Below, piece by piece: positions 3,178 to 19,472 of a stretch of 64,000 nucleotides of DNA. The DNA is from Candidatus Dormiibacterota bacterium (lineage in GTDB: Bacteria; Chloroflexota; Dormibacteria; Aeolococcales; Aeolococcaceae). The stretch lies in assembly GCA_035652335.1 (NCBI GenBank), contig DASRDZ010000010.1:39594-103593 (forward strand), written 5' to 3'. How positions within the stretch are numbered: position 1 is the stretch's first letter; every line of letters starts with the position of its first letter. A program made the translations under genes and the position numbers. The notes below the pieces were generated by a model, which worked only from the letters and a program-made list of their open reading frames with translations, was not told the origin of the DNA and ran no database searches.

Positions 3178-6100
3178 TCAGTGATCGTAACGTAGGAGCC
3201 GGGGGCGGCCCAGCAGCCCGCTGACGCGCTGGTCCTCGGGACCGTAGATCGTCGGCACGCCACGCGCCACCAGCGGCGCCAGGGTGTTGGTCACCTCCAG
3301 CTCGATGAGGTTCTCGCCGGCACGCAGCGGGACCTCGATGCGCCAGGGGCGGCACCACAGCGCGCCGAGGTCCTCGCCGTTGACGCGCACGCCGGCGCTG
3401 CCGCGCACCTCGCCGAGGTCGAGCACCGCGTCCATGTCGCGCTCCACCCGCACCGTGGCGCGATGCAGGATGACGCCGGCGAAGGAGTCCAGGCCCTGGC
3501 GGTGCCAGGAGATGCCGGTGCGGATCACGCCGTCGCCGAGCGTCAGCACGGGGTGCTCGCGGAAGCAGGCGGCGCCGCGCCCGCCGGCCTGTGCCTGCAC
3601 GCGGATCGCCACGCGCGCACCGCCGCGCAGCGGCAGCACGCCGTCGTCGATCCGCACCTCCTCGCCGTCGAGCCAGGCCTGCACCTCGCCGTCGACCGGC
3701 AGCGTCATGCTGCGCGCGCCGGGCGGCGCCAGGAAGCAGAACCACGATGGCGGGGGCGGCTCCGGGGAGTCCGACCAGCGCTGCGGCACCAGCCCGCGCA
3801 CCACCTCCTCGCCCTCCAGCCAGGCGACGTCGGTGAGCGTGTGGCGGCGCTCGATCTGCTCGCGCGCTCCCCAGCCGGAGAGCGGGCTGCCCGCGCTGAG
3901 GCCGTAGGCGCCCACCCACGGTTCACCCGCGGCGCAGGTCTCCCAGCGCTCGTCGCTGCCGATCTCCAGCACCGCTCCCGAGCGCAGGCGCAGCCGCAGG
4001 CTGCAGCCGAAGCTCGGCGTGGTCATCGTCTCACCGGCGAAGGCCTCGACGACGTGCTCGCCCGCCTCCAGATGCGGCGGCACCTCGACGTGGTGCGTCG
4101 CCGCTGCGCTCGAGGACACCTCGACCTCGGCGGGCTCGCTCAGCGTGATGCGCCGCCGGAAGCGGCGCGCCTGCGGCGCGCCGCGATAGTCGGGGTGCAC
4201 CATCCGTCCGCCCCAGATGCCCACGGGCGCACGGCGGTAGGGCTCGCCGAAGCACCACGACAGCGCCGTCGGCGGCGGCTTGCTGTAGCCGCGATAGGCG
4301 AGATGCGGGGCGTGCCGCGGCACCACCTCGACGGCCACCTCGTGCCAGCCGGCGTCGAGGTGCACGGGGATGGCCAGCACGCCGTTGTCGAGCGGGCCGG
4401 CGAGATGCGTGCCGTCGAGCCACACCGTGATGACGGCGTCACCCTCGATGACGAGGTGCGTGTCGCAGGCCTGCGGCACGTGGCCGTAGGAGACCAGGCG
4501 TGCGCCGTCCTCGGGCAGCACCGCCTTCCACGTCTCCACCTTGCCGCGCACGCCGAAGAGCGTCTCCAGGCAGACGTCCTCGATGCCGTAGCGCTCCGAG
4601 TACTCGAAGGGGACGCCGTCGACGGTGGCCCGAGGGCCGTACGTCGACACCACCTCGCGCCAGCCGTCGCGCAGCATCCGCTCGCGCGGAGGGACGCGCC
4701 CGTTGTCGCCGCTCATGCGCTCCTCCATGCCCAGCGAACGCATGGGATGCTCGACGTCCTCGGGCACGACGGGAGCGCTGCGCCAGGCGGGATCGTCGCC
4801 CTCGCGCCAGGCGAAGGTGCGGCGCTCCACCGGCGGTGTGCCCGGGTTGGGCGGCAGGCGCAGGTCGCCCCAGCGGTTCTCGCCCCACTCGAGGTAGCGG
4901 CACTCCCACTCCACCGCCAGGGGGATCTCCTGCGACGGTGCCGGCGTGGCGACGCGCTGCGGCTCACCGGGCGGCAGCGCGACGATGGTGAAGGGGCCGT
5001 CGAGGCGCAGCAGCAGGTCGTCGCCGTCGAGCCGCGCGTCGAGGGGGTGCACGCTGCCGTCGCGGAACTCCCAGCGCTCGGCGCTCCGCGGGCCCACGCC
5101 GCGCACGCGCAGCTCGCCCTCGCCGGTGCAGAGCAGCAGGTCGAGGTCGCCGCAGCGCCGCCACTGCACGCGCACCTCCGCGCCGGCGGCGCGCGGCGGC
5201 GGCAGGGCGGCGGGCACCTCCGCGGGCGTGGCCACCACAGTCGCCAGCGAGCGCAATCTGGCCACGTGTGTCAGGAACTCGGCGTCGCCTGAGCCGTTCT
5301 CCGCCGACCAGTCCGGCAGCGGCTCGACGATCACCACGGGAACGCCTCGCTCCGCCCGCGCGATCAGGGCGTCGACCACCGGCAGCGGCAGGCAGCGGCA
5401 GGCCGGCAGCACCACGGGCAGGTCGGGCACCCGGTCCAGCCAGTCCTCGTTCACCGCCATGCGGTCGTGGCCGGCGTCGTGCAGGAGGCTGCGCGTCGCC
5501 CACTCGTCGGGCCGGTCCCAGCGCACCGAGCCGTGGTGCCCCATGAGCTGCACGTACACCTGGTTGGCGCGCTGCGCGCTCTCGCCCCACTCCATGTGCC
5601 CGAGCGTGTCGGCCCACACCGTCGAGAGCGGGTGGAGGACGGCCACCTCCGGGTGGTGCCGCCCCGCCGCCGCGGCCATCATCACCCGCGCCATGGCCTC
5701 GGCGAAGGGCGCGTAGTGCCGCGAGAAGGGCTGGCGCCAGAGCATCTCCGGCGAGGCCCACTCCCACCACATGCCGCGCGTCGCGTAGTAGCCACCGTGT
5801 GGCAGGAACAGCGACGCGCCCTCGCGCGCCCACTCGAAGAGCGCCTCCGCCTGGTGCGCCAGCGAGAGTCCCTGCCCCTGCGAGTGGAAGCCCTCCAGCC
5901 AGACGCGCGAGGCTCCGGTGAGCGTGGCCAGGGAGAGGTGGAAGCGGATGTCGCCCATCTGGTCACTGCCCGGCGCGTTGGCCCAGGCCATGGTCCGGAA
6001 GTGGTCGACGTAGGCGAGGGCGCCGATGATCGGCGTGCCCATCCGCGACATCTGGTCGTAGCCGGCCAGCAGGCCGCGCTCGCGCACCATGCGCGCGTAC

Positions 6101-6858
6101 GGCTCGGTGTAGGCGCGCTCGATGCGCTGCCTGGCCACGTCGCACACCTGCCAGCGCAGCGCCGGCATCCGCGGGTCGTCGGACGGCGCGAAGGGGACCG
6201 CGGGCGGGTCGAAGCCCTTGACGGCGCGGAACTCCTCGGCGAAGCCCGGCGCCCCGGTGCCGAAGCACCACATCTCGTCCTCGAAGAGCGCGACGACGGG
6301 ATCGCCGTCGAGGTCGCCGGTCGACTCCGCCAGCATGCGGTTGACCGCGCCGTCCCTCGCCAGCGTCGCGACGGCGCGCACGTTGCCGAAGTCGAAGCCG
6401 TAGGGAAGCACGGTCGGCCCCGGCGCCGTCATCTCGCCGCGGAAGTCGGGATGCTCGCGCAGCAGCGCGGACATGTCGCGCATGCCGCCCGCCTGGTAGG
6501 GGCTGCCGGTGACGACGCCGAGCCCCAGCTCGCGACAGCGAAGCAGGATGCGCCGGTAGAGCGCGGTGCGCTCGGGCGTGCCCACCGGCGGGTCGTCGCC
6601 GACCGAGCCGCCGGCAGGGCCGAAGGCTGCCAGCGAGGCCGTCGCCACACCGCCGCAGCCCATCTCGACCAGGCGGTCGAGCTGCCAGCGCAGCCGCTCC
6701 TCGTCGAGCTTCTCGCCGCTCCACCACCACGCCGGGATGGGGCGCCACCTGTTCTCCGGGTTGCCCGCGAAGGCGCTGCGCAGCTCGGCGGGATCCGCGA
6801 TCGCGCCGGTCCAATCCATGCGCACAGATGCCCTGGGGGCGGCGTCGTCGACGATCAT
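3178..6858 (-). CDS. Large multidomain glycoside hydrolase (1226 aa; family uncertain, GH106/GH2-like TIM-barrel plus C-terminal beta-sandwich)
   Basis: The real start is the ATG at 6858-6856 (MIVDDAAPRASVRMDWTG...), not the GTG at 7356; the N-terminal 166 codons of the track ORF are Arg-rich junk. This ATG overlaps the stop of the upstream PhyH gene (ATGA), indicating coupling. Motifs include WWWSGEKLDEERLRWQLDRLVEMGCGGV and a C-terminal ...GENLIELEVTNTLAPL tail typical of GH C-terminal beta-sandwich domains. Confidence 0.7.
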   Translation of the reverse strand: MIVDDAAPRASVRMDWTGAIADPAELRSAFAGNPENRWRPIPAWWWSGEKLDEERLRWQLDRLVEMGCGGVATASLAAFGPAGGSVGDDPPVGTPERTALYRRILLRCRELGLGVVTGSPYQAGGMRDMSALLREHPDFRGEMTAPGPTVLPYGFDFGNVRAVATLARDGAVNRMLAESTGDLDGDPVVALFEDEMWCFGTGAPGFAEEFRAVKGFDPPAVPFAPSDDPRMPALRWQVCDVARQRIERAYTEPYARMVRERGLLAGYDQMSRMGTPIIGALAYVDHFRTMAWANAPGSDQMGDIRFHLSLATLTGASRVWLEGFHSQGQGLSLAHQAEALFEWAREGASLFLPHGGYYATRGMWWEWASPEMLWRQPFSRHYAPFAEAMARVMMAAAAGRHHPEVAVLHPLSTVWADTLGHMEWGESAQRANQVYVQLMGHHGSVRWDRPDEWATRSLLHDAGHDRMAVNEDWLDRVPDLPVVLPACRCLPLPVVDALIARAERGVPVVIVEPLPDWSAENGSGDAEFLTHVARLRSLATVVATPAEVPAALPPPRAAGAEVRVQWRRCGDLDLLLCTGEGELRVRGVGPRSAERWEFRDGSVHPLDARLDGDDLLLRLDGPFTIVALPPGEPQRVATPAPSQEIPLAVEWECRYLEWGENRWGDLRLPPNPGTPPVERRTFAWREGDDPAWRSAPVVPEDVEHPMRSLGMEERMSGDNGRVPPRERMLRDGWREVVSTYGPRATVDGVPFEYSERYGIEDVCLETLFGVRGKVETWKAVLPEDGARLVSYGHVPQACDTHLVIEGDAVITVWLDGTHLAGPLDNGVLAIPVHLDAGWHEVAVEVVPRHAPHLAYRGYSKPPPTALSWCFGEPYRRAPVGIWGGRMVHPDYRGAPQARRFRRRITLSEPAEVEVSSSAAATHHVEVPPHLEAGEHVVEAFAGETMTTPSFGCSLRLRLRSGAVLEIGSDERWETCAAGEPWVGAYGLSAGSPLSGWGAREQIERRHTLTDVAWLEGEEVVRGLVPQRWSDSPEPPPPSWFCFLAPPGARSMTLPVDGEVQAWLDGEEVRIDDGVLPLRGGARVAIRVQAQAGGRGAACFREHPVLTLGDGVIRTGISWHRQGLDSFAGVILHRATVRVERDMDAVLDLGEVRGSAGVRVNGEDLGALWCRPWRIEVPLRAGENLIELEVTNTLAPLVARGVPTIYGPEDQRVSGLLGRPRLLRYDH

Positions 6859-7634
6859 CGGCAGCCGCGGAAGGGCATGTGGTCGCCGCTGCGGAAGCGC
6901 GGCGGCGTGGCGTACACGTTGCGGTGCGGCGTCCCGTCGCCGCGGAGCAGGTAGCAGATCGGCCAGGGTTGCTCGCCGCGGATGCGCGTGGTGGTGGGGA
7001 TGTAACGGATGGTCAGCCCGCAGCGGCGGCGCGTCGAGCGGTTCGCGCGCGAGCCGTGCACGATGCTCGGGTGGTGCACCGAGACCCCGCCTCGCGGCAC
7101 CACCACGTCGACGGCGGCGGACTCGTCGACGTCGAGCGCGATCTCGGAGCTGAGCAGGTTCTCGATCGCCGTGACCTCGCGCCGCTCGTGCACCGGCCAG
7201 TCGTGGCTGCCGGGGATGACGCGCAGGCAGCCGTTCTCCGGCAGCGAGTCGTCGACGGCGAGCCAGAGCGAGACCACCTCCATCGGCTCCAGCTGCGGCC
7301 AGTAGGCGGCGTCCTGGTGCCAGAGCACGGGCTGGCCGTCGCCGGGTGGCTTGCACACGTACTGCGAGGCGAAGAGCGCGATGCCGTCGCCGATGAACTG
7401 CGCGGCGACGTCGAGGAGGCGGTCGTCGCCGACCAGGCGCACCCAGAAGGGGTCGTCGGCGAGCAGGTCGACGCCAAGCGTCTCCGGGCGCCGCCCCGGG
7501 TTGCGCGCGGTGAGCCAGTCGACATGGGCGGCCACCTCGTCGATGAGCTCAACGTCGAGGACGTCGGGGAACACCGCGTAGCCCTGGCGGGCGTAGTGCT
7601 GCAGCGGCGACTCGGCGGTCGCGGCGGTGCTCAT
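6855..7634 (-). CDS. Phytanoyl-CoA dioxygenase (PhyH) family Fe(II)/2-oxoglutarate oxygenase, paralog 1
   Basis: 259 aa from the ATG at 7634 (MSTAATAESPLQHYARQGYAVFPDVL...). Carries the HxD...H facial triad context (LWHQDAAYW ... VSVHHPSIVHGSRAN). Its TGA stop (6857-6855) overlaps the ATG of the downstream GH. The track ORF 6855..8045 has an Arg/Gly/His-rich junk N-terminus. Confidence 0.75.
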   Translation of the reverse strand: MSTAATAESPLQHYARQGYAVFPDVLDVELIDEVAAHVDWLTARNPGRRPETLGVDLLADDPFWVRLVGDDRLLDVAAQFIGDGIALFASQYVCKPPGDGQPVLWHQDAAYWPQLEPMEVVSLWLAVDDSLPENGCLRVIPGSHDWPVHERREVTAIENLLSSEIALDVDESAAVDVVVPRGGVSVHHPSIVHGSRANRSTRRRCGLTIRYIPTTTRIRGEQPWPICYLLRGDGTPHRNVYATPPRFRSGDHMPFRGCR

Positions 7635-7648
7635 CGCCGGCGGCCCGG

Positions 7649-8557
7649 TCAGCGGCGGAGGGTCTGCACGAAGCGGCGCAGACGCGACGCTGCCGCCGCG
7701 CCCGCCGCCCCGCCGCTCGGCGCCGGGGGAGCCGGAGCAGGGATGAGGCTGCCGGCGAAGACGAGTGCGCCCAGCGCGGTGAGCAGGGTGCCGGGGAGCA
7801 GGCTGCGCAGCGGCAGCCCGGCGGCGACCGCCCGGATCGGCGTCCTGCGCAGCGGCGCCGCCCTCACCGGTGCTCGCGGCGCCGCCGGGACGACCGGTGC
7901 GGTCTCGACGGTGGGGATGGTGACCACGGCGGGCACCGGCGGCGGCGTGGGCACCAAGAGGTCGGCGGGCGGCAGTGGCGGCAGCACGGTGTTGCCGTCG
8001 TCGGTGGTGAGGATGGTGAGGATCGCCGAGGCCTGGCGGACGCACGGCGTGAGCTGGTCACCGGGATTGGGCAGCGGCACGGGCGGCGCGGCCGGCGGCG
8101 AGGGAGGAGTCACCGGAAGCGCAGGGATCGTGGCCACCGGCGACGTCAAAGGAGAGGGGCAGGCGGTTGCAGCGGGTGAGCCTGCGCCGATGTCCTGATA
8201 CACGGTGACCACCGCATCGCCCGGCGGGTCGTCCTGGGGGATCTCGAAGTTGCACTGCACCGTCCCGGTGTTGCTGGCGGAGCCGACCGCGCACTTCTGC
8301 GCCGGCGCGCCCGGCGCGCAGGCGGGTGCCGGGCAGACCGTCAGCGTGTACCCGACGGAGGGGGCGAACCCCTGCCCGGAGACGCTGATGGTGGCGCCGG
8401 GCAGGCCGCTGGCCGGCGCGACCTGGACGGCCGTCGAGGCCGTCGGCGGGGGCGGCTGGGTCGCGGCGGCCGGGTGCGCGTCGAGCAGCGAGAGCACGCC
8501 GGCCAGCGCCATGGCGGCGGCGACCGCCCTGGCGGCGCGACGGGGAGCTGTGCCCAT
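7649..8557 (-). CDS. Secreted proline-rich membrane-anchored protein (N-terminal signal peptide, C-terminal TM helix)
   Basis: Start trimmed to the ATG at 8557 (MGTAPRRAARAVAAAMALAGVLSLLDAHPAAA is a signal peptide). It has a Cys-containing domain, then long PPxP tracts (TPPSPPAAPPVPLPNPG..PTPPPVPAVV), and a C-terminal hydrophobic anchor (LLTALGALVFAGSLIP). It is the first gene of the operon PhyH1 - GH - SMP30. Confidence 0.55.
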   Translation of the reverse strand: MGTAPRRAARAVAAAMALAGVLSLLDAHPAAATQPPPPTASTAVQVAPASGLPGATISVSGQGFAPSVGYTLTVCPAPACAPGAPAQKCAVGSASNTGTVQCNFEIPQDDPPGDAVVTVYQDIGAGSPAATACPSPLTSPVATIPALPVTPPSPPAAPPVPLPNPGDQLTPCVRQASAILTILTTDDGNTVLPPLPPADLLVPTPPPVPAVVTIPTVETAPVVPAAPRAPVRAAPLRRTPIRAVAAGLPLRSLLPGTLLTALGALVFAGSLIPAPAPPAPSGGAAGAAAASRLRRFVQTLRR

Positions 8558-8599
8558 TCCCAACCAACCTCTTCTTCCCGCCCTCCGGGCGACCCTTCG

Positions 8600-8685
8600 G
8601 CGGCCCGGCGGCGACTCTAGCATTGACCACCTCGTATGATTAGGTAAAAATTCTAACAATGCAAGGTGGAGGAGGAAGGAAGGCC
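8600..8685. promoter_or_regulatory. AT-rich divergent promoter region between the Pro-rich/PhyH/GH operon (-) and the ABC transporter operon (+)
   Basis: TTGACCACCTCGTATGATTAGGTAAAAATTCTAACAATG lies in a roughly 72% GC genome. It contains TATGAT and TAAAAAT-like -10 candidates, and a strong RBS block GGAGGAGGAAGG follows. Confidence 0.4.
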
Positions 8686-9201
8686 GTGCCTGCGCGGTCC
8701 GCTGCCCGCGGCGCACGCCTGGCCGCGCTGGCCGGGGCGCTCGCCGCGGCCGTCACCCTGAGCGGCTGCGGCGTCCGGCTGCAGGCCAACCACCTGGTGG
8801 TGCGCATCGACGCCGCCGGCATGCACCTCGTCAGGGTCAACGGCAGCGCGGCCCGCGCCGGCACGGCCATCCCCTCGGGAGAAACCGTCATCGACGTCAT
8901 CAACGCCGACCCGCAGCTCGCCCACACGGTGAGCCTGGTGCAGGGCGTCGCCACGCCGGGCGCTCTCCCCGAGCGCGTGCGCGCCGCCCGCCTGGTCAGC
9001 GACGACCCCGACCAGATCCTCGACATGACCGACTCGCTCGACCGCGACCAGGTCAAGGTCAGCGCCAGCGGCGGCATCATCGACGACCCCCAGACTGCGC
9101 AGTTCCACGAGTACCTCGCGCCCGGCCAGGCCTACCTCATCGTCGACGTGGCCCACGCGAGCCGCGACTGGCTCGCCATCACCCCGAGCGGCGCCGCATG
9201 A
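8686..9201 (+). CDS. Small lipoprotein of unknown function (lipobox LSGC)
   Basis: GTG at 8686 sits 10 nt after GGAGGAGGAAGG (8668-8680). Signal plus lipobox: MPARSAARGARLAALAGALAAAVTLSGC. The stop TGA 9199-9201 overlaps the ATG of the next gene (ATGA). The ATG at 8659 chosen by the track lies inside the RBS. Confidence 0.6.
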   Translation: MPARSAARGARLAALAGALAAAVTLSGCGVRLQANHLVVRIDAAGMHLVRVNGSAARAGTAIPSGETVIDVINADPQLAHTVSLVQGVATPGALPERVRAARLVSDDPDQILDMTDSLDRDQVKVSASGGIIDDPQTAQFHEYLAPGQAYLIVDVAHASRDWLAITPSGAA

Positions 9202-11537
9202 ACGCTCCACGGACCGCCACGCCGCAGGGCGTCCGTCCCACCGGGACGGCGGCCGCGCTTGGGCTGCGCCTGCGGGCGAGCTGGCGAGCCATGGCGGCGG
9301 CGCTGGCGTCGGAGGCGCGCCTCTGGGCGCCCGCCGCGGTGTGGGCGCGGCTGCGCGCCCTGCCGCTGCGGCGGAGGGTCGCCATCGCCGGCTGGATCGG
9401 CCTGGTGGTTGCCGTCATGATCGCCGGCAACCTGCCCTTCGGCAGCGACCACGGCATCCTCCTGCCGCGCAAGATCCCGCTCGGACTGGTGCTCCAGGGC
9501 GTGATCTTCGGTGCGGTGTACTCGCTGGTGGCCATCGGGCTGGTGCTGGTCTACCGCGCCGGCCGCTACATCAACTTCGCCCAGGGCGGCGCCGGCGCGG
9601 TGGGCGTGGTGCTCACCGCCAAGCTCATCCAGATCACCGGGATGAACTTCTTCCTCGCCGCGATCGTCGGCGTGGCGGCAGCCGGGCTGCTGGCGATGCT
9701 GGTGGAGGTGCTGGTCTTCCAGGGCCTGCGCATCTTCAGCTCGCCGCGCCTGGTCGCCACCGTGGCCACCCTCGGCGTGATGCAGCTCTTCGGCTTCGTC
9801 GAGTACATGGTGCGCGGCATCGAGGCGGACCACTACTACAACCTGCTGCCCATTCCCAAGGCGCCGCTCAACCTCTCGTTCAGCATCGGCATCGTCGACT
9901 TCAACGGCGCCCACGTCCTGGTGCTGCTGGTGGTGCCGGTGGTGGTGCTGGCGCTGACGCTGTTCCTGCGCCTCACCGACTTCGGCGCCGCCATCCAGGC
10001 CGCCGCTGAGAATGCGGACCGCGCCCGGCTGGTGGGCATCACGGTGCGCCGCATGCACACCTACGTGTGGGCGATCGCGGGCGTGCTCAGCGGGCTCACC
10101 GCCATCCTCGCCGCGCCCTTCTTCAACTTCTCCAACGGCGTCAGCTCAGGACCGTCGCTCTTCCTGCTCGCCCTGGCACCCGCGGTGCTGGGTGGCATGA
10201 ACAGCCTGGCGCAGACCTTCTTCGCCTCCCTCGGGCTCGGCGTGATGGAGTCCGTGGTGGGCTGGAACTACAACGTGGCGACGCTGGAGATGGTGCTCCT
10301 CGGCGTGCTGCTCGTCGGCCTGCTGCTGCGCCGCCGGTTGACCAGCCGCACCACCGAGGGCGAGGAGCGCTCCTTCGCGGTGGCCTCGCGGGTGCGCCAG
10401 TTCCCACGCGAGCTGGCCAGGTTGCCGCTGGTGCGCGCCTGGCGCGGGGGCTTCCGCGCTCTGCTGCTCGGGATGGCCGTCCTGCTGCCGCTCGGCTTCG
10501 ACCTGCAGCACCAGGTGGAGGCCGAGAACGTCCTCGTGTTCATCATCGCCGGCGTCTCGCTGGTCCTGCTCACCGGCTTCTCGGGGCAGATCTCCTTCGG
10601 GCAGTTCGGCATCGTCGGCTTCGGTGCGCTCTTCGGCGGCTGGCTGCTCACCAACGCGGGCCTCGACTACTGGACCTCGATGCTCGTCGTCACCGTCGCG
10701 GGCGGCATGGTGGCGGCGGTCATCGGCATCCCCGCACTGCGCATCCGCGGCCTCTTCCTCGGGGCGGTGACGCTCGCCTTCGCGCTCGCCTGCACCGACT
10801 ACTTCTTCTCCGACAGCGGCCACTTCCCCATCTTCACGCCGAGCGGGCCCGTGCACCGTCCCAGCCTGCCCTTCGGCTGGGACCTGGGCACCCAGCTCGA
10901 CAAGGCGGGCGACGAGCTGCACCTCTACTGGTTCTGCCTCGGCGTGCTGGTGCTGGTGATGCTGATGGTCCGCGCGCTGCGCAACAGCCGCTGGGGGCGC
11001 GCCTTCCAGGCGGTGCGCGACAACGAGCGCGCCGCCAACGCCTACGGCGTGGGCTCGATGCAGACCAAGCTGCTCGCCTTCGCCGCCTCGGGGATGATCG
11101 CCGCGCTGGCCGGCTACCTCTACATCACCGTGCAGCAGCAGGTGGCCCCGACGTCGTTCCCGGTGACCACCTCGCTGGTGCTCTTCAGCGCGGTCGTCAT
11201 CGGCGGGCTCGGCTCGCTCTCCGGCGCGGTCATCGGCGGCCTCTTCTTCGAGGGCGTGCAGTACTTCATCAAGGTGGACGCCATCCAGCTGCTGACCACG
11301 AGCCTCGGCTTGCTGGTGGTGCTGGCGTTCTTCCCGGGAGGGCTGGGCTCGCTGTTCTTCAACGTGCGCGACGCGCTGCTCCGCCGCTACGCGCTGCGCC
11401 GCCGCATCGTGGTGCCGTCGCTGCTCGCCGACCGTCGGGTCGAGGACGGCACGGCGCCGGATGCCGAGGCTGCGCTGGTGGGCAACGCGGTCACCGCCGC
11501 AGCACCGGTCGGCGTCGGCGTGGGAGGAGGACAGTGA
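9198..11537 (+). CDS. Fused LivH-LivM branched-chain-amino-acid-type ABC transporter permease (two permease domains, 779 aa)
   Basis: The first half carries a LivH-like signature (LVAIGLVLVYRAGRYINFAQGGAGAVG) and the second half a LivM-like one (LLTGFSGQISFGQFGIVGFGALFGGWLL). The ATG overlaps the upstream stop; the stop TGA 11535-11537 overlaps the GTG of the next gene. Confidence 0.85.
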   Translation: MNAPRTATPQGVRPTGTAAALGLRLRASWRAMAAALASEARLWAPAAVWARLRALPLRRRVAIAGWIGLVVAVMIAGNLPFGSDHGILLPRKIPLGLVLQGVIFGAVYSLVAIGLVLVYRAGRYINFAQGGAGAVGVVLTAKLIQITGMNFFLAAIVGVAAAGLLAMLVEVLVFQGLRIFSSPRLVATVATLGVMQLFGFVEYMVRGIEADHYYNLLPIPKAPLNLSFSIGIVDFNGAHVLVLLVVPVVVLALTLFLRLTDFGAAIQAAAENADRARLVGITVRRMHTYVWAIAGVLSGLTAILAAPFFNFSNGVSSGPSLFLLALAPAVLGGMNSLAQTFFASLGLGVMESVVGWNYNVATLEMVLLGVLLVGLLLRRRLTSRTTEGEERSFAVASRVRQFPRELARLPLVRAWRGGFRALLLGMAVLLPLGFDLQHQVEAENVLVFIIAGVSLVLLTGFSGQISFGQFGIVGFGALFGGWLLTNAGLDYWTSMLVVTVAGGMVAAVIGIPALRIRGLFLGAVTLAFALACTDYFFSDSGHFPIFTPSGPVHRPSLPFGWDLGTQLDKAGDELHLYWFCLGVLVLVMLMVRALRNSRWGRAFQAVRDNERAANAYGVGSMQTKLLAFAASGMIAALAGYLYITVQQQVAPTSFPVTTSLVLFSAVVIGGLGSLSGAVIGGLFFEGVQYFIKVDAIQLLTTSLGLLVVLAFFPGGLGSLFFNVRDALLRRYALRRRIVVPSLLADRRVEDGTAPDAEAALVGNAVTAAAPVGVGVGGGQ

Positions 11538-13573
11538 AGCTCCGCATCGCCATGCCCAAGCGGCGCCGCACGCGCGTCCTGCTCGCCGGCGCCCCGCTGT
11601 ACCCGATCATCGCGCTGGCCCTGGTCAGCGCCCTCGACCAGCTCGACCTCGCCGTCTTCGGCGTCGTCTTCCCGGAGATGAAGGCCGACCTGCACTTCTC
11701 GCTGCAGGACGTCTTCTGGATCGGCTTCCCGGCGTCGCTGCTCGGCTGGTGCGGCATCTTCGTGATCGGCGCCCTCGGTGACCGACTCCGCCGGGTGACG
11801 CTGTCCTGGATCCTGGCGGCCGTCTTCGGGCTCAGCTCGTTCCTCACCGGAGCGGTGATCAGCTGGCCGCAGCTGGTCCTGCTGCGCACCTTCAGCGTGC
11901 TGCCCAACTCCTACACGTCGCTGCACCACAGCCTGATCGCCGACATCTACCCTCCCGAGGGTCGCGGCTTCGCGATGGGCCTGTGGACCGCGCTGCGACC
12001 CGCCGGCTTCGTCGCCGGCAGCCTGCTCGCCGGCGTGCTGGCGGCGGTGGCCAACTGGCGGCTGGCCTTCCTGGCGCTGTCCATCCCCGTCATCGCCGCG
12101 GTGGCGATGCTGTTCCGGGTGCGGGAACCCGCGCGCGGCGCGCAGGAGTTCGAGGCCTCCACCGCCGCATTCGCCAGCCAGGTTCACCTCGGCCCCATCC
12201 AGAGCGTCAAGCTGCTGCTCAACATCCGGTCGTACCGGCGGCTGATGTGGGCATACGGCGTGATCGGCATGGGCGTGGGATCGCTGGTCCCCCTCTCCGC
12301 CTTCGTGTACCAGGGCGTGTTCGGCGTGGGACCGTTCGGACGGGGCCTCATCAACGCCGTCACGCAGCTCATGGTCTTCCTCAGCAGCGTGGCGGCGGGA
12401 GCCCTGCTGCAGCGCTTCTCGCCGCGCTTCATCACCCTCGCCAACGGCCTCCTCGTCTCGGCGGCCGGGCTCTCCTACCTGTTCCTCGCCCTCGCGCCGA
12501 CCGCGGGACTCGCCGTCGCGTCGCAGCTCATCGGCAGCGCCGCCTTCGGCATCTTCTCGGTCGGCACCTTCCTGCAGGTGGCGGCGACGACTCCGGCCAA
12601 CATCCGGACCATGGCCTTCGCCGCGGCGGGCATCTTCATGATCCTCGGCAACCTCTGGGGTCCGATCGCCCTGGGCATCGGCGCCAGCCAGGGCTACCGG
12701 GTGGCCCTGCTCGCCTCCTTCTGGTGGTACATCGTCGGCGGCCTGGTGGTCGCCGACGGCGCACGGTTCGTGAAGCGTGACCAGGAGCGCGCCAACACGG
12801 TGCTGCGGGCCGAGGCGGAGGCGCGCCGCCGCCGCGCCGCCGGCGAGAAGCTCGCCCTGCTCGACGTGCGCCACCTCGACGTGGCCTACGGCAACGTGCA
12901 GGTGCTCTTCGACGTCTCGATGCAGGTCACCGAGGGCGAGATCGTCGCCCTGCTGGGCACCAACGGCGCCGGCAAGTCGACGCTGCTGCGCACCGTCTCC
13001 GGCTTGATCCGTCCCACCGAGGGCGTGGTGCTCTTCGAGGGCTCGGACATCACCGGCCTCGACGCGGAGCTGATCACCAAGCGCGGCGTCATCCACGTGC
13101 CCGGTGGGCGCGGCGTGTTCCCCGGGCTCACGGTGCGCCGCAACCTGCGGCTCGGCACCTACCTCTACCGCTCCGACCCGCTCTTCCGCGAGGAGCGCAT
13201 GGAGTACGCCCTGTCCTTCTTCCCGCGGCTCGGCGAGCGGCTCGACCAGGCCGCAGGCAGCCTGAGCGGTGGCGAGCAGCAGATGCTCAACCTGGCCCAG
13301 GCGATGATGGTGCAGCCACGCCTCCTGCTCATCGACGAGCTGTCGCTGGGCCTGGCGCCGCGCATCGTGGAGGAGATCCTCCAGGTCGTCGAGAGCATCG
13401 CCGCCAGCGGCGTCACCATCGTGCTCGTCGAGCAGTCGGTGAACATCGCGCTCAGTCTCGCCTCGCGCGCCTACTTCATGGAGAAGGGCGAGGTGCGCTT
13501 CGAGGGCCGCAGCGCCGACCTCGCCGACCGCGACGACCTGGTCCGCTCCGTGTTCCTGGCGGGGGCGCGCTGA
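11534..13573 (+). CDS. Chimeric protein: N-terminal 12-TM MFS-type transporter domain (about 415 aa) fused to a C-terminal LivF-like ABC ATP-binding domain (about 255 aa)
   Basis: GTG at 11534 lies 6 nt after GGAGGAGGA and overlaps the upstream TGA. The MFS motif A is present (GALGDRLRRV) across many TM segments. The C-terminus has Walker A (LLGTNGAGKST), the ABC signature (LSGGEQQ) and Walker B (LLLIDELSLGL). The track ORF 10067..13573 upstream of 11534 is an Arg-rich artefact overlapping the permease. Confidence 0.8.
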   Translation: MKLRIAMPKRRRTRVLLAGAPLYPIIALALVSALDQLDLAVFGVVFPEMKADLHFSLQDVFWIGFPASLLGWCGIFVIGALGDRLRRVTLSWILAAVFGLSSFLTGAVISWPQLVLLRTFSVLPNSYTSLHHSLIADIYPPEGRGFAMGLWTALRPAGFVAGSLLAGVLAAVANWRLAFLALSIPVIAAVAMLFRVREPARGAQEFEASTAAFASQVHLGPIQSVKLLLNIRSYRRLMWAYGVIGMGVGSLVPLSAFVYQGVFGVGPFGRGLINAVTQLMVFLSSVAAGALLQRFSPRFITLANGLLVSAAGLSYLFLALAPTAGLAVASQLIGSAAFGIFSVGTFLQVAATTPANIRTMAFAAAGIFMILGNLWGPIALGIGASQGYRVALLASFWWYIVGGLVVADGARFVKRDQERANTVLRAEAEARRRRAAGEKLALLDVRHLDVAYGNVQVLFDVSMQVTEGEIVALLGTNGAGKSTLLRTVSGLIRPTEGVVLFEGSDITGLDAELITKRGVIHVPGGRGVFPGLTVRRNLRLGTYLYRSDPLFREERMEYALSFFPRLGERLDQAAGSLSGGEQQMLNLAQAMMVQPRLLLIDELSLGLAPRIVEEILQVVESIAASGVTIVLVEQSVNIALSLASRAYFMEKGEVRFEGRSADLADRDDLVRSVFLAGAR

Positions 13574-14415
13574 TGGCCAGGCCGGTCGCGCTCGAGATCC
13601 GCGACGTGCTGGTGCAGTTCGGCGGCGTGCGCGCGGTCGACGTCGAGCACATGGCCATCAGGCGCGGGCGCATCGCCGGCCTGATCGGGCAGAACGGCGC
13701 CGGCAAGACCACCCTCTTCGACGTCATCAGCGGCTTCGTGCCGCAGCGCCGCGGCTCGGTCGTCCTCGACGGCGAGCACGAGCTGACCGGCCTCTCGCCG
13801 GTGCAGCGCGCCCACCTCGGCCTGGGACGCAGCTTCCAGGCCGCCACCCTCTTCGAGTCGCTGACCGTCGCCGAGTCGCTGATGGTCGCCTTCCACACGC
13901 GCATGGAGAGCAGCGGTCCGCTGTCGTCGGCGCTGCAGCTTCCCTGGGCGCGGCGCGAGGAGCGCGCGGTGCGGGTGCGCGTCGACGAGCTGATCGACCT
14001 GATGGGCCTGGGCGCGTTCCACGACAAGTTCATCAGCGAGCTGTCCACCGGGACGCGGCGCATCGTCGACCTGGCCGGCGTGCTCGCCCTGCAGCCCAGC
14101 GTGCTGCTGCTCGACGAGCCGTCGAGCGGCATCGCCCAGCGCGAGGTGGAGCAGCTCGGCGCGCTGCTCCGCGAGGTGCGCGAGGCGCTCGACTGCACCA
14201 TGGTGGTGGTCGAGCACGACATCCCCCTGGTGCGCACGCTCTGCGACGAGCTGTATGCGATGGAGACCGGGCGCGTCATCGCCCACGGCACCTGCGACGA
14301 GGTGCTGTCCGACGACAAGGTTGTGGAGTCCTACCTGGGCGGCGGCAGCCGCGCGGTGGAACGGAGCGGCGCCGCCACGGCGCCGGTCCCGGTTGCGATG
14401 GGAGGAACGCTGTGA
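13573..14415 (+). CDS. LivG-like ABC transporter ATP-binding protein
   Basis: Walker A (GLIGQNGAGKTTLF), signature (LSTGTRR) and Walker B (LLLDEPSSG). The ATG shares one nucleotide with the upstream TGA (TGATG). Confidence 0.85.
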   Translation: MARPVALEIRDVLVQFGGVRAVDVEHMAIRRGRIAGLIGQNGAGKTTLFDVISGFVPQRRGSVVLDGEHELTGLSPVQRAHLGLGRSFQAATLFESLTVAESLMVAFHTRMESSGPLSSALQLPWARREERAVRVRVDELIDLMGLGAFHDKFISELSTGTRRIVDLAGVLALQPSVLLLDEPSSGIAQREVEQLGALLREVREALDCTMVVVEHDIPLVRTLCDELYAMETGRVIAHGTCDEVLSDDKVVESYLGGGSRAVERSGAATAPVPVAMGGTL

Positions 14416-14975
14416 GCAGCACGACGATCAGCCGCGTCTCGAACCTGGGACGCGGTGTCAGCGCACTGGGACCGAAGCTGAAGCGCTTCGGCTCGCGGGC
14501 CGCGTCCGCGTCGGGGACGTGGCGGCGCTACGCCACCCCGCTCGGCCTCGCCGCCGTGGCCGGCGGCTTCGTCCTGCTCATCGAGAGCTGGTGGGACGGC
14601 AGCGGAACGCCGGACGCACGCGTCGAGCTCCAGGACGTCATCTCGGCGATCGGCGCGGGCGCGCTGGTCATCGCCGGCATGCTGCTCATCGTCGGCGAGC
14701 TCTTCATGTCGATGCGGCGCAGCGGCGAGCGGCAGTCGGAGCGGATGATCGCCGCGCTGCAGCAGATCGCCGCCGGCACCGCCGCGCAGCAGGAGACGGG
14801 CGGCGCCGCGGCAGTCAGCCCGTCGTCGGTGGTTCTGGCCAGCCATGCCTCATACCACACGCCCACCTGTGACCTCGTCCTGGGACGCGAGGGGGTCACC
14901 GTGACCACGCTGAGCGAGGCACACGCCAAGGGGTTGACCCCCTGCCGCGCCTGCCTCGGTGGAGGAGACCGCTGA
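14412..14975 (+). CDS. Small two-TM membrane protein with a C-terminal Ada-type zinc-binding domain (YH-x3-C ... A-x2-G-x2-PC-x2-C)
   Basis: GTG at 14412 is 6 nt after GGAGG and overlaps the upstream stop (GTGA). Two hydrophobic helices (LGLAAVAGGFVLLIESWW and AIGAGALVIAGMLLIVGELFM) are followed by SYHTPTCDLVLGREGVTVTTLSEAHAKGLTPCRACLGG, which matches the Ada_Zn_binding consensus (YHrpdC...eeAeaaGyrPCkvC). Confidence 0.6.
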   Translation: MSSTTISRVSNLGRGVSALGPKLKRFGSRAASASGTWRRYATPLGLAAVAGGFVLLIESWWDGSGTPDARVELQDVISAIGAGALVIAGMLLIVGELFMSMRRSGERQSERMIAALQQIAAGTAAQQETGGAAAVSPSSVVLASHASYHTPTCDLVLGREGVTVTTLSEAHAKGLTPCRACLGGGDR

Positions 14976-16750
14976 TGCACAGCACGCGCCGAGCCCGTCA
15001 CGTCCGTCTGCTGGTGATGCTGGGGCTGGCGGGGATCCTGGCCGGCTGCTCGCGCACACCTCCGGGCGGGATCATCGCGGGCGGCGGTCTTGGTGGCGCA
15101 GCGGGGGCGGCGGACGCGCAGACGCAGACGAGCGCGGACTCCTCGGCGACGGCCGGCAGCGGTGCGGGTGCGGGCGCGGGCGCCGCGGGCGTCAACGGCG
15201 CAGTGGCCGGCGCGGCGGGCGCGGCCGGTGCCACGGGCGGCTCCGCGGTCGCGGCGGCGGCCGCCTCCGGCCCCACGGGTGAGAAGCCGATCGCGTCGTG
15301 GCCCGGTGTGACGCCGACCACCATCGACATCGCCATCGCCGCCAAGCTGCACAACTGCAGCGAGTCGAACAACCCGCAGGAGTCGAGCGCCGGCACCTGG
15401 ACGCAGAAGTACGCCGACCTGGTCTCCGCCTACGTCGACTACGTCAACAAGTACATCCCCCTCCCCGGCGGCCGGAAGCTGAAGCTGGTCGGCAACGACA
15501 ACACCTTCGGCATCCCGCTCGTCGACGACGGCGGCCAGTTCTGCCCGACGCAGCAGGCTGCCGCCGGCCGCTACGTGGTCAACTCGCTCAAGCCCTTCGC
15601 CGCCCTGTACTCGCAGCCGACGCCCTCGGGCCCGGTGTTCGACGAGACCGTGGCCAACGGGCACGTCCTCGACATCGGCCAGGGCTGGCCGACGGTGCAG
15701 TCGATGACCAGCCGCTGGCCCTACGCCATCGGGGTGGCGGTGGTCGGCGAGCCGCTCGACCAGCACATGGGCTACCTCGCCGACTACGTGCACAAGCGCC
15801 TGCAGAGCACGCAGTACACGCCGCCGGCCGGGCCGTCGCAGCCGCGCAGCTACGGCGCGATGATCTACGACGACCCGTTCTACAACGGGCTGGCCAGCGA
15901 GACGCAGCAGCTCTTCGGACAGTTCGGCATCAGCGTCAAGATCTACCGGATCAGCAGCAACACCGCCACCGCCGCGCAGCAGGCCAACCAGGTGGCCCTG
16001 CAGATGAAGCAGGACGGGGTGAACACGATGATCTGGGGAGTGGTCGGCCAGCCCGGCATCGTCATGGCCAACGCCTTCGACTCCGAGGCCTACTACCCGG
16101 ACAACCTGCAGGCCTACAGCGGCGTCGCCTTCTGGGACACCGACTACTCGCACACGCAGTGGTCCCGCGCCTTCGGCATCGGCACCCCGTCGATCATCGC
16201 CGAGCGCAACGACACCACCCACTACACCACCGCCTTCGAGGGTGGTGACGCCTACGACGAGGTGTGGGCCAAGTCGACCCAGTACGACGGCAACACCGCG
16301 CAGAACGGTGCCGACGGCTACGGCATCTGGAACAACCTGATGACCCTGACGGCGGGCCTCGAGCGCTCGCCGGTCAACTTCACACCGACCTCGTTCGCCG
16401 ACGGGCTGGACTCCTCGGCGACGCAGTACCGCTGCGTCGAGGAGCGCTTCTGGGGAACCGACCACCCGCAGCTCTTCCGGGTGGCCTGGTACAAGGACAA
16501 CCCCGCAGGCGCAGAGGGGTACACGACCCTCTACTGGGTCAACAAGCAGTCGTCGTTCGGCACCCCGGGCTACTACGAGTCGTACGACGGGTACTACACC
16601 TACTTCGGGCTCAACGACCTGCCCAACTCACCCTCCGACGACACGGCCAACCAGTCGGTGCCGCCCATCAAGCAGATCCCGCACATCGGCGTCGACCCCT
16701 TCAAGTCGTGCCCCAGCATCGGGCTGCAGGGTGGCCTCTACGAGCACTGA
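14975..16750 (+). CDS. Large lipoprotein, putative divergent periplasmic-binding-protein-like substrate-binding component (591 aa)
   Basis: ATG at 14975 overlaps the upstream TGA. Lipobox LAGC, then a roughly 90-aa Gly/Ala/Ser-rich linker (GAGAGAGAAG...), then a roughly 480-aa globular domain. Position and lipidation suggest it is the operon's binding protein; its length and sequence are atypical for LivK. Confidence 0.6.
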   Translation: MHSTRRARHVRLLVMLGLAGILAGCSRTPPGGIIAGGGLGGAAGAADAQTQTSADSSATAGSGAGAGAGAAGVNGAVAGAAGAAGATGGSAVAAAAASGPTGEKPIASWPGVTPTTIDIAIAAKLHNCSESNNPQESSAGTWTQKYADLVSAYVDYVNKYIPLPGGRKLKLVGNDNTFGIPLVDDGGQFCPTQQAAAGRYVVNSLKPFAALYSQPTPSGPVFDETVANGHVLDIGQGWPTVQSMTSRWPYAIGVAVVGEPLDQHMGYLADYVHKRLQSTQYTPPAGPSQPRSYGAMIYDDPFYNGLASETQQLFGQFGISVKIYRISSNTATAAQQANQVALQMKQDGVNTMIWGVVGQPGIVMANAFDSEAYYPDNLQAYSGVAFWDTDYSHTQWSRAFGIGTPSIIAERNDTTHYTTAFEGGDAYDEVWAKSTQYDGNTAQNGADGYGIWNNLMTLTAGLERSPVNFTPTSFADGLDSSATQYRCVEERFWGTDHPQLFRVAWYKDNPAGAEGYTTLYWVNKQSSFGTPGYYESYDGYYTYFGLNDLPNSPSDDTANQSVPPIKQIPHIGVDPFKSCPSIGLQGGLYEH

Positions 16751-16760
16751 GCGATGCGGC

Positions 16761-16786
16761 GCGGTCCCGTCCCAGGGCGGGACCGC
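16761..16786. terminator. Bidirectional hairpin terminator between convergent substrate-binding-protein and PhyH2 genes
   Basis: GCGGTCCCG-tcccaggg-CGGGACCGC: a 9-bp perfect stem starting 11 nt after the substrate-binding-protein stop and ending 4 nt before the PhyH2 stop. It is a U-tract-less (I-shaped) terminator of the kind common in high-GC actinobacteria. Confidence 0.45.
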
Positions 16787-16789
16787 TTC

Positions 16790-17584
16790 TCACCGCGCCA
16801 GGCTGAAGGTCTCGGTGAAGAAGGCGCGCGTGACCTCGTTCTCGAAGTGGCCGTGCAGCGTGGCGCGGTGGATGGTGGGGATGTAATGCCCGAGGTGCAG
16901 CGCCGAGTCGCGGTACACGGCCACGTCGCCCGCGGACAGCGCGACCATCCGCGCGCCAGGCATGGAGCGGCGGTAGCGCGAGGCGGCGACCACGTACTCC
17001 TCCTCGCTCACCCCGTCGCGGCTGGGCGGCCCGGCGGCGAGGACCCGCGCCTCCTCGGGGGTGTCGTCGCGCACGTGGCTGCCGGGGACGACCCACAGCG
17101 ACATGTCGTCGTAGAGGGCGGCGTTGAACTGGTTGAAGAAGCGGAGGTCGGGGACCAGGGTGCGCCAGCGCTCCACGTCGGCCTGGGGGACGTTGTCCCG
17201 GTAGTCGCGGTGCCAGCGCTGGCACCACGACCCGGTGCTGCGCTGGAAGAGGACCGTGAAGGCCTCGGCGTCGAGGGCGAAGTCGGTGCCGAGCAGGCGG
17301 TCGACGACGCGGCGCAGGCGGGGCAGCTCGGCGAGCGCCGCGAAGGGCGCGGTGTCGATGCGCTCGCCGTAGTCGAGCAGCACCCTGCCGCCCACCGTGC
17401 CACCCGGCGGGCGCGTCGCGTCGGGGCCCAGCGTGGACCGCGTGTGGGCGCGAAGCACCTCGACCTGCTCGCGCATCCGCGCCAGCAGCGGCCCGGGGAT
17501 GGCGTCGGTGACGACGGTGAGGCCGTCCCGCGCGTATTCCTCGGCGTGGCGGTCGAGCTCGGCGGCCTGCATGGCTGCTCGCAT
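16790..17584 (-). CDS. PhyH-family Fe(II)/2OG dioxygenase, paralog 2
   Basis: 264 aa with clean non-repetitive sequence (WHRDYRDN ... VVPGSHVRDD ... ALHLGHYIP). Convergent with the substrate-binding-protein gene, with a hairpin between them. Confidence 0.8.
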   Translation of the reverse strand: MRAAMQAAELDRHAEEYARDGLTVVTDAIPGPLLARMREQVEVLRAHTRSTLGPDATRPPGGTVGGRVLLDYGERIDTAPFAALAELPRLRRVVDRLLGTDFALDAEAFTVLFQRSTGSWCQRWHRDYRDNVPQADVERWRTLVPDLRFFNQFNAALYDDMSLWVVPGSHVRDDTPEEARVLAAGPPSRDGVSEEEYVVAASRYRRSMPGARMVALSAGDVAVYRDSALHLGHYIPTIHRATLHGHFENEVTRAFFTETFSLAR

Positions 17585-17625: not shown

Positions 17626-18660
17626 ATGCTGCAGACCGTCGACCGCGTCCTCGACGTGGCCCGCGAGTTCGTCGAGAGGGGCTGGGATCGCGGCATCGCC
17701 GTGGCGGTGCTGCGAGACGGAGCCTGCGTCGTCGACGCCGTCACCGGCACCGACCTCGACGGGTGCCCGCTCGACACCGGCACGCGCTTCCTCTGGTTCT
17801 CGGCCAGCAAGCCGCTGACGGCGTTCTGCGTGGTGATGCTCGCCGACCGCGGGCTGCTCGGCTACGACGACCCGCTGGTGCGCTGGATCCCCGAGATCGG
17901 CGGGGGCGAGCGGGCGCGCATCACCGTCGACCATCTGCTCACCCACCGCGCCGGCATCCCCGACTTCTTCTGCACGGGGGTCACGGTCGAGGACTGGTAC
18001 GACTGGGATCGCGCGGTGCGGCTCACCGCCGCCCTCCCGCTGGAGTACGCACCGGGCAGCCAGACCGCTTACCACGCGCTGAGCTTCGGGCTGCTCGGCG
18101 AGCTGGTGCGGCGGGTCGACGGCCGGCCCTTCGCGCGGTTCTTCGCCGAGGAGGTGGCCCGGCCGCTCGGCCTCGACACGGTGACCTGGGGACTTCCGGA
18201 CAGGTCTGTCCCCTACACGCGCACCGGCGTCGAGGGCCAGGCGGAGGCCGCCAACGTGCACCGCTTCCAGACCGGCGCGGCGCTCGACGCCGTGGTGCCC
18301 GCCGGCAACGCCTGGGGGACGGCGCGCGACCTGGCGCGCTTCCATCAGATGCTCGGCGACGGCGGCGAGGGTCTCGTCTCGCCGCACTCAGCGGCCGAGA
18401 TGGTGCGTGCGCGCGTCGACGGCCACCAGGGCATGCTCGGCCGCGGGGTCGAGGTCGGACGCCGTCCCGGCGGCTGCACCGGCGACCTCGCCGGCCCGCG
18501 CGTCTTCGGGCACCCCGGCATCCGCTCGACGGTCGGCTGGCACGACCCCGACACGGGAGTGTCCTGCGCCATCCTCTGCAACGGAACGCCCGGCCCTGAG
18601 GAGGGCGAGCGCCGGCTGTCTGCCATCAGCGACGCGGTGATCACGGCGACGCGCGCGTGA
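17626..18660 (+). CDS. Serine hydrolase, class C beta-lactamase/esterase family (SxxK)
   Basis: Active-site motif FSASKPLTAF, with YHALSFGLLG downstream and a HPGIRSTVGWHDP region near the C-terminus. The stop overlaps the GTG of the next gene. Confidence 0.8.
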   Translation: MLQTVDRVLDVAREFVERGWDRGIAVAVLRDGACVVDAVTGTDLDGCPLDTGTRFLWFSASKPLTAFCVVMLADRGLLGYDDPLVRWIPEIGGGERARITVDHLLTHRAGIPDFFCTGVTVEDWYDWDRAVRLTAALPLEYAPGSQTAYHALSFGLLGELVRRVDGRPFARFFAEEVARPLGLDTVTWGLPDRSVPYTRTGVEGQAEAANVHRFQTGAALDAVVPAGNAWGTARDLARFHQMLGDGGEGLVSPHSAAEMVRARVDGHQGMLGRGVEVGRRPGGCTGDLAGPRVFGHPGIRSTVGWHDPDTGVSCAILCNGTPGPEEGERRLSAISDAVITATRA

Positions 18661-19472
18661 CCCGCAGCGGCGTGGTGCACCGGCCCGACGGTGCGCGCAT
18701 CCCCTGGGAGCTGCTCGGCGACGGCGGCGGTCCGCGCATGGTGTTCGGCCACAGCCTGATGGGCCGCGGCCTCGGCGCGGAGCCGATCTACCGCCCGCTC
18801 CTCGACGGCGGCTGGGCGATGCTCACCATGGACCAGCGCGGGCACGGTGAGGCCTCGCCGCCACCGGGCGGCGACTTCGCCGTGGAGACGCTGGCCGGCG
18901 ACATGCTGGCGGTGCTCGACGAGGTGGGGTGGGACACCGCCTGGCTGGGCGGCGGTTCGATGGGCGCCGCCGTCGCCACCGCCGCCGCCGCGCTGACGCC
19001 GCATCGCGTCGAGGGCCTGGCCCTGCTGGCGCCCGCCGTCGGCGGCGCACCCAATCCTGCGCTGCAGCCGTTCGCCGCGCTCGGCGACGTCTTCGGGCGT
19101 GACGGCCTCGACGCCGGCATCGCCGCGTACTCCGCCATGGCACGCGAGAACGGCGCGGACGAGGCCCTCCTCGCCCTGCGCGCCGAGCAGTTCCGCATGC
19201 AGCCTGCGGAGAGCTGGGTCGCCGCGCTGCGCGGCATCGCGCGCTGGAACCTGGCGGAGGCGCTCGACGCGGTGCAGGAGCTCGACGTCCCAACCGCCGT
19301 CGTCGCCTGGACCGGCGACGACGTGCACCCGTTGAGCGTCGCCGAGGACCTGGTGCGGCGCCTGCGCGACGCGCGACTGCACGTGCTGCAGGAGTGGAAC
19401 GGCGACCCCGCGCACCTCTTCCGCGTCATGCTCGACATGACGCAGGCCGTCAGCGCCGCCCGCCCACGCTGA
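18657..19472 (+). CDS. Alpha/beta hydrolase fold protein
   Basis: GTG start overlaps the upstream TGA (GTGA). Nucleophile elbow GGGSMGA plus an HGE motif; 271 aa. Confidence 0.75.
   Translation: MTRSGVVHRPDGARIPWELLGDGGGPRMVFGHSLMGRGLGAEPIYRPLLDGGWAMLTMDQRGHGEASPPPGGDFAVETLAGDMLAVLDEVGWDTAWLGGGSMGAAVATAAAALTPHRVEGLALLAPAVGGAPNPALQPFAALGDVFGRDGLDAGIAAYSAMARENGADEALLALRAEQFRMQPAESWVAALRGIARWNLAEALDAVQELDVPTAVVAWTGDDVHPLSVAEDLVRRLRDARLHVLQEWNGDPAHLFRVMLDMTQAVSAARPR

Follow-up and report, generated by a model that had tools for sequence, protein, structure and literature searches.

In the 64,000-nt stretch of contig DASRDZ010000010.1 analyzed here (the window), the open reading frame (ORF) at 11534-13573 on the + strand runs through 679 codons and a stop as a single gene. 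The protein is a chimera in which residues 1-408 form a 12-helix major facilitator superfamily (MFS) domain, residues 409-440 a linker, and residues 441-679 a LivF-type ATP-binding cassette (ABC) ATPase. The operon consists of six + strand genes whose starts and stops overlap; MFS-LivF is encoded by the third, whose GTG start at 11534 shares the tetranucleotide GTGA (11534-11537) with the TGA stop of the upstream permease gene. A Shine-Dalgarno-like purine run, GGGAGGAGGA (11522-11531, + strand), was read from the sequence 2 nt ahead of the GTG. The G+C content of third codon positions (GC3) is 0.92-1.00 across all 50-codon blocks of the frame, the junction included, which is far above chance. 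An earlier reading of this DNA made from its letters only (the sequence-only reading) had described an uninterrupted 679-codon frame whose start overlaps the permease stop, and both statements hold; it was right about the purine run but put the GTG 6 nt past it, an immaterial detail. We consider 11534-13573 to be almost certainly a genuine gene for a chimeric subunit of a HAAT-type (LivHMGF/Urt-like) binding-protein-dependent ABC importer, a judgement that covers the architecture and the complex jointly.

The MFS domain (11534-12757, + strand) is predicted to have 12 transmembrane (TM) helices in an N-in/C-in topology. It matches Pfam MFS_1 (PF07690) with 124.7 bits against a cut-off of 33.4, and its residues 28-377 span the model from position 1 to position 347 of 347. 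Motif A, GALGDRLRRV, lies at residues 79-88 (11768-11797) and includes D83, R84, and R87; R118 is the motif B arginine, and loop 10-11 carries P354-x-x-x-R358. The charged residues D83, R84, R87, and R118 are kept, being invariant or nearly so in alignments of 40 and 82 sequences and in 36 free-standing relatives. The AlphaFold2 model built from the 40-sequence alignment (mean predicted local distance difference test score, pLDDT, 85.4; predicted template modelling score, pTM, 0.80) contains the 12 TM helices in a 6+6 arrangement, with a cytoplasmic central loop at residues 194-231. The predicted inside loops contain 23 lysines and arginines, compared with 0 for the outside loops, so both ends of the MFS domain, and with them the ATPase, should be cytoplasmic. 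The sequence-only reading had recognized motif A and a run of hydrophobic helices in the N-terminal half and had named a failure of that half to score as MFS as grounds for giving up the idea of a fusion; the full-length MFS_1 match, the 6+6 helices, and the mean pLDDT of 85 settle this point in its favor. By Foldseek, the MFS part matches EfpA (8ufd_A, target TM-score [TMt] 0.67). Among curated MFS families the domain fits none, with just partial matches to DHA2/EmrB, aromatic-acid symporters, and NorA.

A search with the MFS part alone (1.84 billion cluster representatives) found 278 relatives at E < 1e-10; among the 149 best with an available sequence, 58 carry LivF and 89 show the MFS domain alone, some of the 89 being fragments. 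Five free-standing relatives (P0122, P0124, P0134, P0135, and P0143) were inspected for split orthologues, in which LivF would be encoded by its own gene directly behind the MFS gene; all five lie in unrelated neighborhoods, and none has an adjacent LivF or other ATPase gene. About 30 positions are conserved in the fused family, including P47, D83/R84/R87, R118, S133/L134/D137/Y139, W175, P199/R201, R270/G271, P354/R358, and D416. Since these positions are equally conserved in the 36 free-standing relatives, the fused MFS domain has not decayed. Judged by its sequence, the domain is intact and undegenerated, and it may transport by alternating access.

The cytoplasmic linker (residues 409-440, 12758-12853, + strand) leads from TM12 to the first ATPase strand and is modelled by AlphaFold2 as a continuous helix at residues 410-435. 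It holds 10 lysines and arginines as well as the conserved D416. Its sequence varies and its length is nearly invariant, with one 1-residue indel between TM12 and the first ATPase strand among 40 aligned proteins. A length this close to constant suggests that the geometry is defined and that the linker is no loose tether. The LivF-type nucleotide-binding domain (NBD) that follows (12854-13573, + strand) matches Pfam ABC_tran (PF00005) over residues 459-602 with 101.7 bits. It contains Walker A, GTNGAGKST (residues 475-483, 12956-12982), the ABC signature LSGGEQQ (residues 577-583, 13262-13282), and Walker B, LLLIDE (residues 597-602, 13322-13339), with the catalytic E602. The three motifs, already spotted in the sequence-only reading, are intact, and they and the catalytic glutamate are invariant across the fused relatives. 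LivF is the best NCBIfam model (NF008626, 209.3 against a cut-off of 441), with UrtE (TIGR03410) at 197.4 against 285.8; because both scores fall under the equivalog cut-offs, the fused ATPase is LivF-like and an orthologue of neither LivF nor UrtE.

The fused NBD shares 43% identity with the LivF-like structure 1ji0 (TMt 0.90), and the two differ in the Q-loop, which reads VPEGRRIF in 1ji0 vs VPGGRGVF in the window protein (G524 at 13103-13105; G524-G525 at 13103-13108). Gly-Gly replaces the Q-loop Glu/Gln in 82/82 fused LivFs. The Q-loop Glu/Gln normally connects the nucleotide site to the coupling helix of the permease. The H-loop His is also absent, the window protein having Gln634 (VEQS) there; since the canonical LivF-like 1ji0 shares the Gln (VEQN), this substitution characterizes LivF and is not tied to the fusion.

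The genes on either side supply the remaining parts of an importer. The upstream gene (9198-11537, + strand) encodes a fused LivH-LivM permease of 779 aa that matches BPD_transp_2 with 205.6 bits over two stretches and gives partial NCBIfam matches to LivH, LivM, UrtB, and UrtC; a sequence search of the PDB with the LivHM permease gave no match. The downstream gene (13573-14415, + strand) encodes a LivG-type ABC ATPase of 280 aa with ABC_tran and a BCA_ABC_TP_C tail (PF12399, 28.9 bits). LivG has canonical Walker A and B motifs, a Q-loop Gln, and an H-loop His; its signature is LSTGTRR, and across the relatives the partner LivG always has this non-canonical form, LSTG[TS]RR. If LivF and LivG pair as these motifs suggest, the LivF Walker A and the LivG signature would make up a deviant ATP site, and the LivG Walker A and the LivF LSGG(E/Q)QQ a consensus site. 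The MFS domain would then be attached to the subunit that carries the deviant ATP site. The last of the six genes (14975-16750, + strand) encodes a 591-aa lipoprotein, probably a divergent type I substrate-binding protein related to Peripla_BP_6, in which a lipobox (LAGC) is followed by a low-complexity tether. It has no Pfam match of its own, and it is 26% identical (E 1e-34) to a protein scoring as Peripla_BP_6 at the head of a Gaiellaceae operon (L002) and 35% identical to a protein of locus L003. Given this homology, the operon probably encodes a complete HAAT-type binding-protein-dependent importer. A profile of the binding protein searched against the PDB gave weak matches (E ~1e-3) to aromatic-acid binding proteins, from which we make no substrate call.

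Next, we compared the fusion with its relatives. In a search of 5.8 billion proteins, the best 120 matches were considered, and all of them are single chains with the same domain order (18 MFS-LivF and 102 MFS-LivF-LivG). Genomes representing 185,579 species, one for each, were scanned with just one narrow peptide from the junction, [ASG]YG[NTG]VQVLF, which yielded 158 confirmed stretches, from which 80 loci were kept; the C-terminal part of the MFS domain, the linker, and the start of LivF are in one frame in 80/80. A stop codon between the two domains in orthologues, named beforehand as the sign of a false fusion, was thus seen in none of them. The 80 loci belong mostly to Acidimicrobiia (Microthrixaceae, Ilumatobacter, and Ca. 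Poriferisocius), and also to Gaiellaceae, Parafrankia spp., Frankia nepalensis CN4, and Jiangella muralis DSM 45357; Rhabdothermincola sediminis likewise carries an MFS-LivF fusion. The chimera is a large conserved family, present in well over a hundred actinobacterial species and widespread in Actinomycetota. The earlier description of such fusions as rare is accurate across biology and in the literature, but not within Actinomycetota. A protein identical to that of the window is on record as NCBI HZS13347.1 (from a metagenome-assembled genome [MAG] labelled Candidatus Dormibacteraeota), and a 679-aa protein that is >=90% identical occurs on three Joint Genome Institute (JGI) contigs. NCBI gives the source MAG this label, yet all operon relatives found are Actinomycetota, and the closest species representative (L006, 'uncultured Actinomycetes bacterium') is 67% identical over the junction query; the taxonomic label or the binning may merit a check. 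In three related loci, the frame changes within the central cytoplasmic loop of the MFS domain (L006 ~6548-6650, L048 ~6552-6690, and L074 ~6570-6620), which would give an N-half and a C-half-LivF. This may reflect sequencing error (two of the three are possibly long-read MAGs, by their isolate names), pseudogenisation, or a real split.

The proteins of the window operon were also compared with 85 loci by tblastn. Beside MFS-LivF, we found LivH in 77/85, LivM in 80/85, and LivG in 82/85 loci, and two layouts were observed. In type A, the layout of the window, LivH-LivM precedes MFS-LivF, and LivG is fused to the end of MFS-LivF in 31 loci and separate in 5. In type B, found in Frankia, Parafrankia, Jiangella, Ca. 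Poriferisocius, and others, MFS-LivF precedes LivH-LivM-LivG, and LivG is in-frame with LivM in 35/40 loci. One example is Jiangella muralis (L076, 8011-10854), in which LivH-LivM-LivG is one 947-aa ORF with a Peripla_BP_6 gene in front. In these 35 type B loci, L076 included, LivH-LivM-LivG is a polypeptide of ~950 aa, so that the transporter minus its binding protein consists of two chains. As LivG switches its covalent partner between the layouts (MFS-LivF in type A, LivHM in type B), there is strong fusion-based evidence that all four modules belong to one complex, and the alternate partners of LivG argue against MFS-LivF as a separate transporter. In all loci, the fusion partner of the MFS domain is LivF, and never LivG, LivH, or LivM.

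A promoter-like site, TTGACC-17-AAAAAT (8623-8651, + strand), lies shortly before the start of the operon; it is recognized solely by its match to the consensus, and no other such site lies within 8000-17200, where 0.3 would be expected by chance. The first gene (8659-9201, + strand), an accessory one, encodes a small lipoprotein of 180 aa with the lipobox LSGC and no Pfam match. It is present in 7/88 fetched loci (one is a duplicate record), with homologues at L002 9817-10290, L003 5305-5808, L004 5378-5920, L006 9503-9940, and L033 8883-9281. This family (~160-180 aa; motifs GETV..N and FHVYLxPG) accompanies the MFS subfamily both in ABC operons and beside a free-standing MFS (L004). An AlphaFold2 model of the small lipoprotein, of moderate quality (pLDDT 70.7; the homologue search gave just four close relatives), has weak Foldseek matches to the cupredoxin folds of azurin, auracyanin, and rusticyanin; the lipoprotein lacks the Cys and Met ligands of type-1 copper sites. 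The fifth gene (14412-14975, + strand), likewise accessory, encodes a small membrane protein of 187 aa with two apparent TM helices (judged by eye) and a C-terminal Cys motif, YHTPTC...PCRAC, which we take to resemble the Ada-type zinc-binding motif. It has neither a Pfam nor an NCBIfam match, and it is 36% identical to the product of L003 10987-11496; a further homologue lies at L006 8853-9398, and the motif YH(T/Q)P(T/A)CDL...(T/R)PC..C is conserved among the three. Downstream of the operon are genes for a PhyH-like dioxygenase (16790-17584, - strand), a beta-lactamase-family serine hydrolase (17626-18660), and an alpha/beta hydrolase (18657-19472). These enzymes could process the imported compound, and such neighborhoods are not conserved between lineages. 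Upstream, a divergent ORF of 1392 aa (3178-7356, - strand) has a coding-like GC3 of 0.88 and no Pfam match at E <= 0.001.

How might the chimeric subunit work? We propose a complex of four parts, namely the fused LivH-LivM permease, LivG, the lipoprotein binding protein, and LivF with its N-terminal 12-helix MFS domain. The MFS domain would be a working second translocation module next to LivHM in the membrane, and its last helix would run into the linker, modelled as a 26-residue helix, and so end at the first ATPase strand. The alternating-access cycle of the MFS domain would be tied, mechanically or allosterically, to the ATP-dependent closing and opening of the LivF-LivG dimer, and uptake through LivHM would be coordinated with the movement of a related solute by the MFS domain. 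That solute might be a product or by-product that is exported, or the same substrate imported in a lower-affinity mode. From the sequence comparisons and the structural model, we give this coupled second transporter a probability of roughly 40-45%.

Several observations weigh against the coupled second transporter. The constancy of the linker length is also compatible with a role that is structural and nothing more. No fusion-specific conserved residue marks an interface when the fused family is compared with the 36 free-standing relatives, and both the contact of the MFS domain with LivHM and any allostery are putative. Conservation within the MFS domain falls mostly on motifs of the cytoplasmic face and on structural Gly/Pro, and by per-helix entropy no position in TM7, TM9, or TM10 is strongly conserved, so that no common substrate site is visible. 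The neighboring genes vary by lineage (amidase and esterase in Jiangella, sulfatases in L002/L003, and beta-lactamase-family and alpha/beta hydrolases in the window); neither a substrate nor a by-product in need of export is consistently suggested by them.

The same conservation pattern, with its variable TM7, TM9, and TM10, would also fit an MFS domain that no longer transports and serves as an extra, TMD0-like membrane module that anchors LivF, aids its assembly with LivHM, or senses a ligand or the membrane and tunes the ATPase. The fixed linker length fits this explanation too, as does the altered Q-loop, the usual reader of the permease coupling helix, and extra N-terminal membrane domains of ABC proteins are usually interaction modules. 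We nevertheless find a loss of transport rather unlikely, since the signature residues of the free-standing relatives are all kept and none is specific to the fusion, which is unexpected after such a loss. Moreover, 12 helices with intact motifs A and B far exceed the needs of an anchor, and the full domain has been retained over deep lineages and two operon layouts. With all of those signature residues kept, of the roles that the sequence-only reading had offered (extra channel, gating module, or anchor), a bare anchor fits worst.

It is quite unlikely, in our estimate, that the MFS domain and the ABC importer are independent transporters, each running its own cycle without mechanical or allosteric coupling, and were joined only so as to be co-expressed, co-localised, or kept at a fixed stoichiometry. 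Such an arrangement would suit the lack of an ATPase partner among the free-standing MFS relatives and the failure to find fusion-specific residues, and fusions of functionally related proteins often mean pathway linkage alone. A passive tether, however, should drift, whereas this linker is predicted to be one continuous helix and its length is near-invariant over 40 diverse sequences; the partner is invariably LivF, and the fused LivF clade has a derived Q-loop. Similarly doubtful is a direct mechanism, in which the MFS cycle would be driven or gated by the ABC dimer through a rigid TM12-to-NBD helix, making a hybrid primary/secondary transporter inside an importer; if true, this would be a mode of energy coupling not described for either superfamily.

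It is very improbable that MFS-LivF works as an ATP-driven transporter of its own, for example as a homodimer, apart from LivHM-LivG. The chain does have the domain order of a half-transporter (membrane domain, then NBD), and a loose whole-chain Foldseek alignment to type IV exporters was obtained; this likeness was disregarded, the root-mean-square deviation (rmsd) of > 20 A making such alignments meaningless. Most type A loci have LivG fused to MFS-LivF and most type B loci have it fused to LivHM, which unites the parts in a single complex; moreover, MFS domains have no coupling helix. A LivF that lacks the H-loop His and the Q-loop Glu/Gln, with its canonical signature paired with a canonical LivG, has the pattern of an obligate heterodimer. 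Finally, an assembly or sequencing artefact, in which a lost stop or a frameshift joined two neighboring genes, might be suspected in a MAG with related loci L006, L048, and L074 showing frame changes (in the MFS central loop, though, and not at the junction), but we reject it in view of the database copies, the in-frame junction in the best 120/120 matches and 80/80 loci, the uniform GC3, and the presence of the fusion in isolates (Jiangella muralis DSM 45357, several Parafrankia strains, Frankia nepalensis, and Rhabdothermincola sediminis).

Textbooks illustrate secondary and primary active transport with MFS and ABC proteins, respectively, as two distinct kinds of machine; in the chimera, a complete MFS domain is hard-wired to one ATPase subunit of an ABC importer, in an arrangement maintained across deep actinobacterial lineages and two operon layouts. 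If the cycles are coupled, this would be a natural system for ATP control of a carrier fold, or for regulation of an ABC pump by a carrier; if the MFS domain is just structural or sensing, it would represent a type of accessory domain new to ABC importers. Public records name such proteins 'MFS transporter', 'ATP-binding protein', or 'ABC-type branched-chain amino acid transport ATPase / predicted MFS permease', and hundreds of database entries labelled just with one of the first two names would need correction. The architecture is robust and would surprise transporter specialists; the function we infer. Cultured carriers (Jiangella muralis DSM 45357, Parafrankia and Frankia strains, and Rhabdothermincola sediminis) make testing feasible. 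No solved structure with both an MFS fold and an ABC ATPase was among the matches returned. A full-text literature search found no description of MFS-LivF or MFS-ABC fusions; most subscription journals, TCDB, and InterPro lay outside its coverage, and absence there is not proof. A HAAT importer with an MFS domain built into LivF is thus a known importer core in a newly noticed architecture, of which we found no study.

Extra domains on core ABC subunits that modulate assembly or activity are well known, for example TMD0 (ABCC/SUR and TAP) and the regulatory domains of MetN (C2), MalK (C-terminal), and OpuA (CBS). TMD0 is a small helical bundle and not a recognized transporter fold, whereas the window protein has a full secondary transporter N-terminal to the ATPase; the MetN, MalK, and OpuA domains differ in being soluble and C-terminal. 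Conceptually, ATP control of a carrier fold has its nearest precedent in the ArsB/ArsA arsenite pump, in which a secondary-carrier-type membrane protein works with an ATPase. However, ArsB does not belong to the MFS, nor ArsA to the ABC ATPases, the two are separate polypeptides, and no binding-protein-dependent permease is involved. To our knowledge, none of these systems is a complete secondary transporter fused to an ABC ATPase. The free-standing 12-helix MFS proteins of the same subfamily (for example P0122, P0134, P0135, and P0143), which have a distant likeness to DHA-type exporters such as EmrB, NorA, and EfpA and among which we know of no characterized member, share with the fused domain the fold, the ~30 signature residues, motif A, R118, and the post-TM12 'FVxxD' helix; they differ in that they end after this helix and lie in gene contexts without an ABC ATPase. 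The operon is closest to the HAAT importers (TC 3.A.1.4; LivJ/K-LivHMGF for branched-chain amino acids and UrtABCDE for urea). It has in common with them two BPD_transp_2 domains, two distinct ATPases (LivG with the BCA_ABC_TP_C tail, and LivF), and, if the homology of the 591-aa lipoprotein is a guide, a type I binding protein of the Peripla_BP_6 kind. It differs from them in that LivH and LivM are fused, often with LivG too, and in that LivF has Gly for the Q-loop Glu and bears a whole MFS domain at its N terminus.

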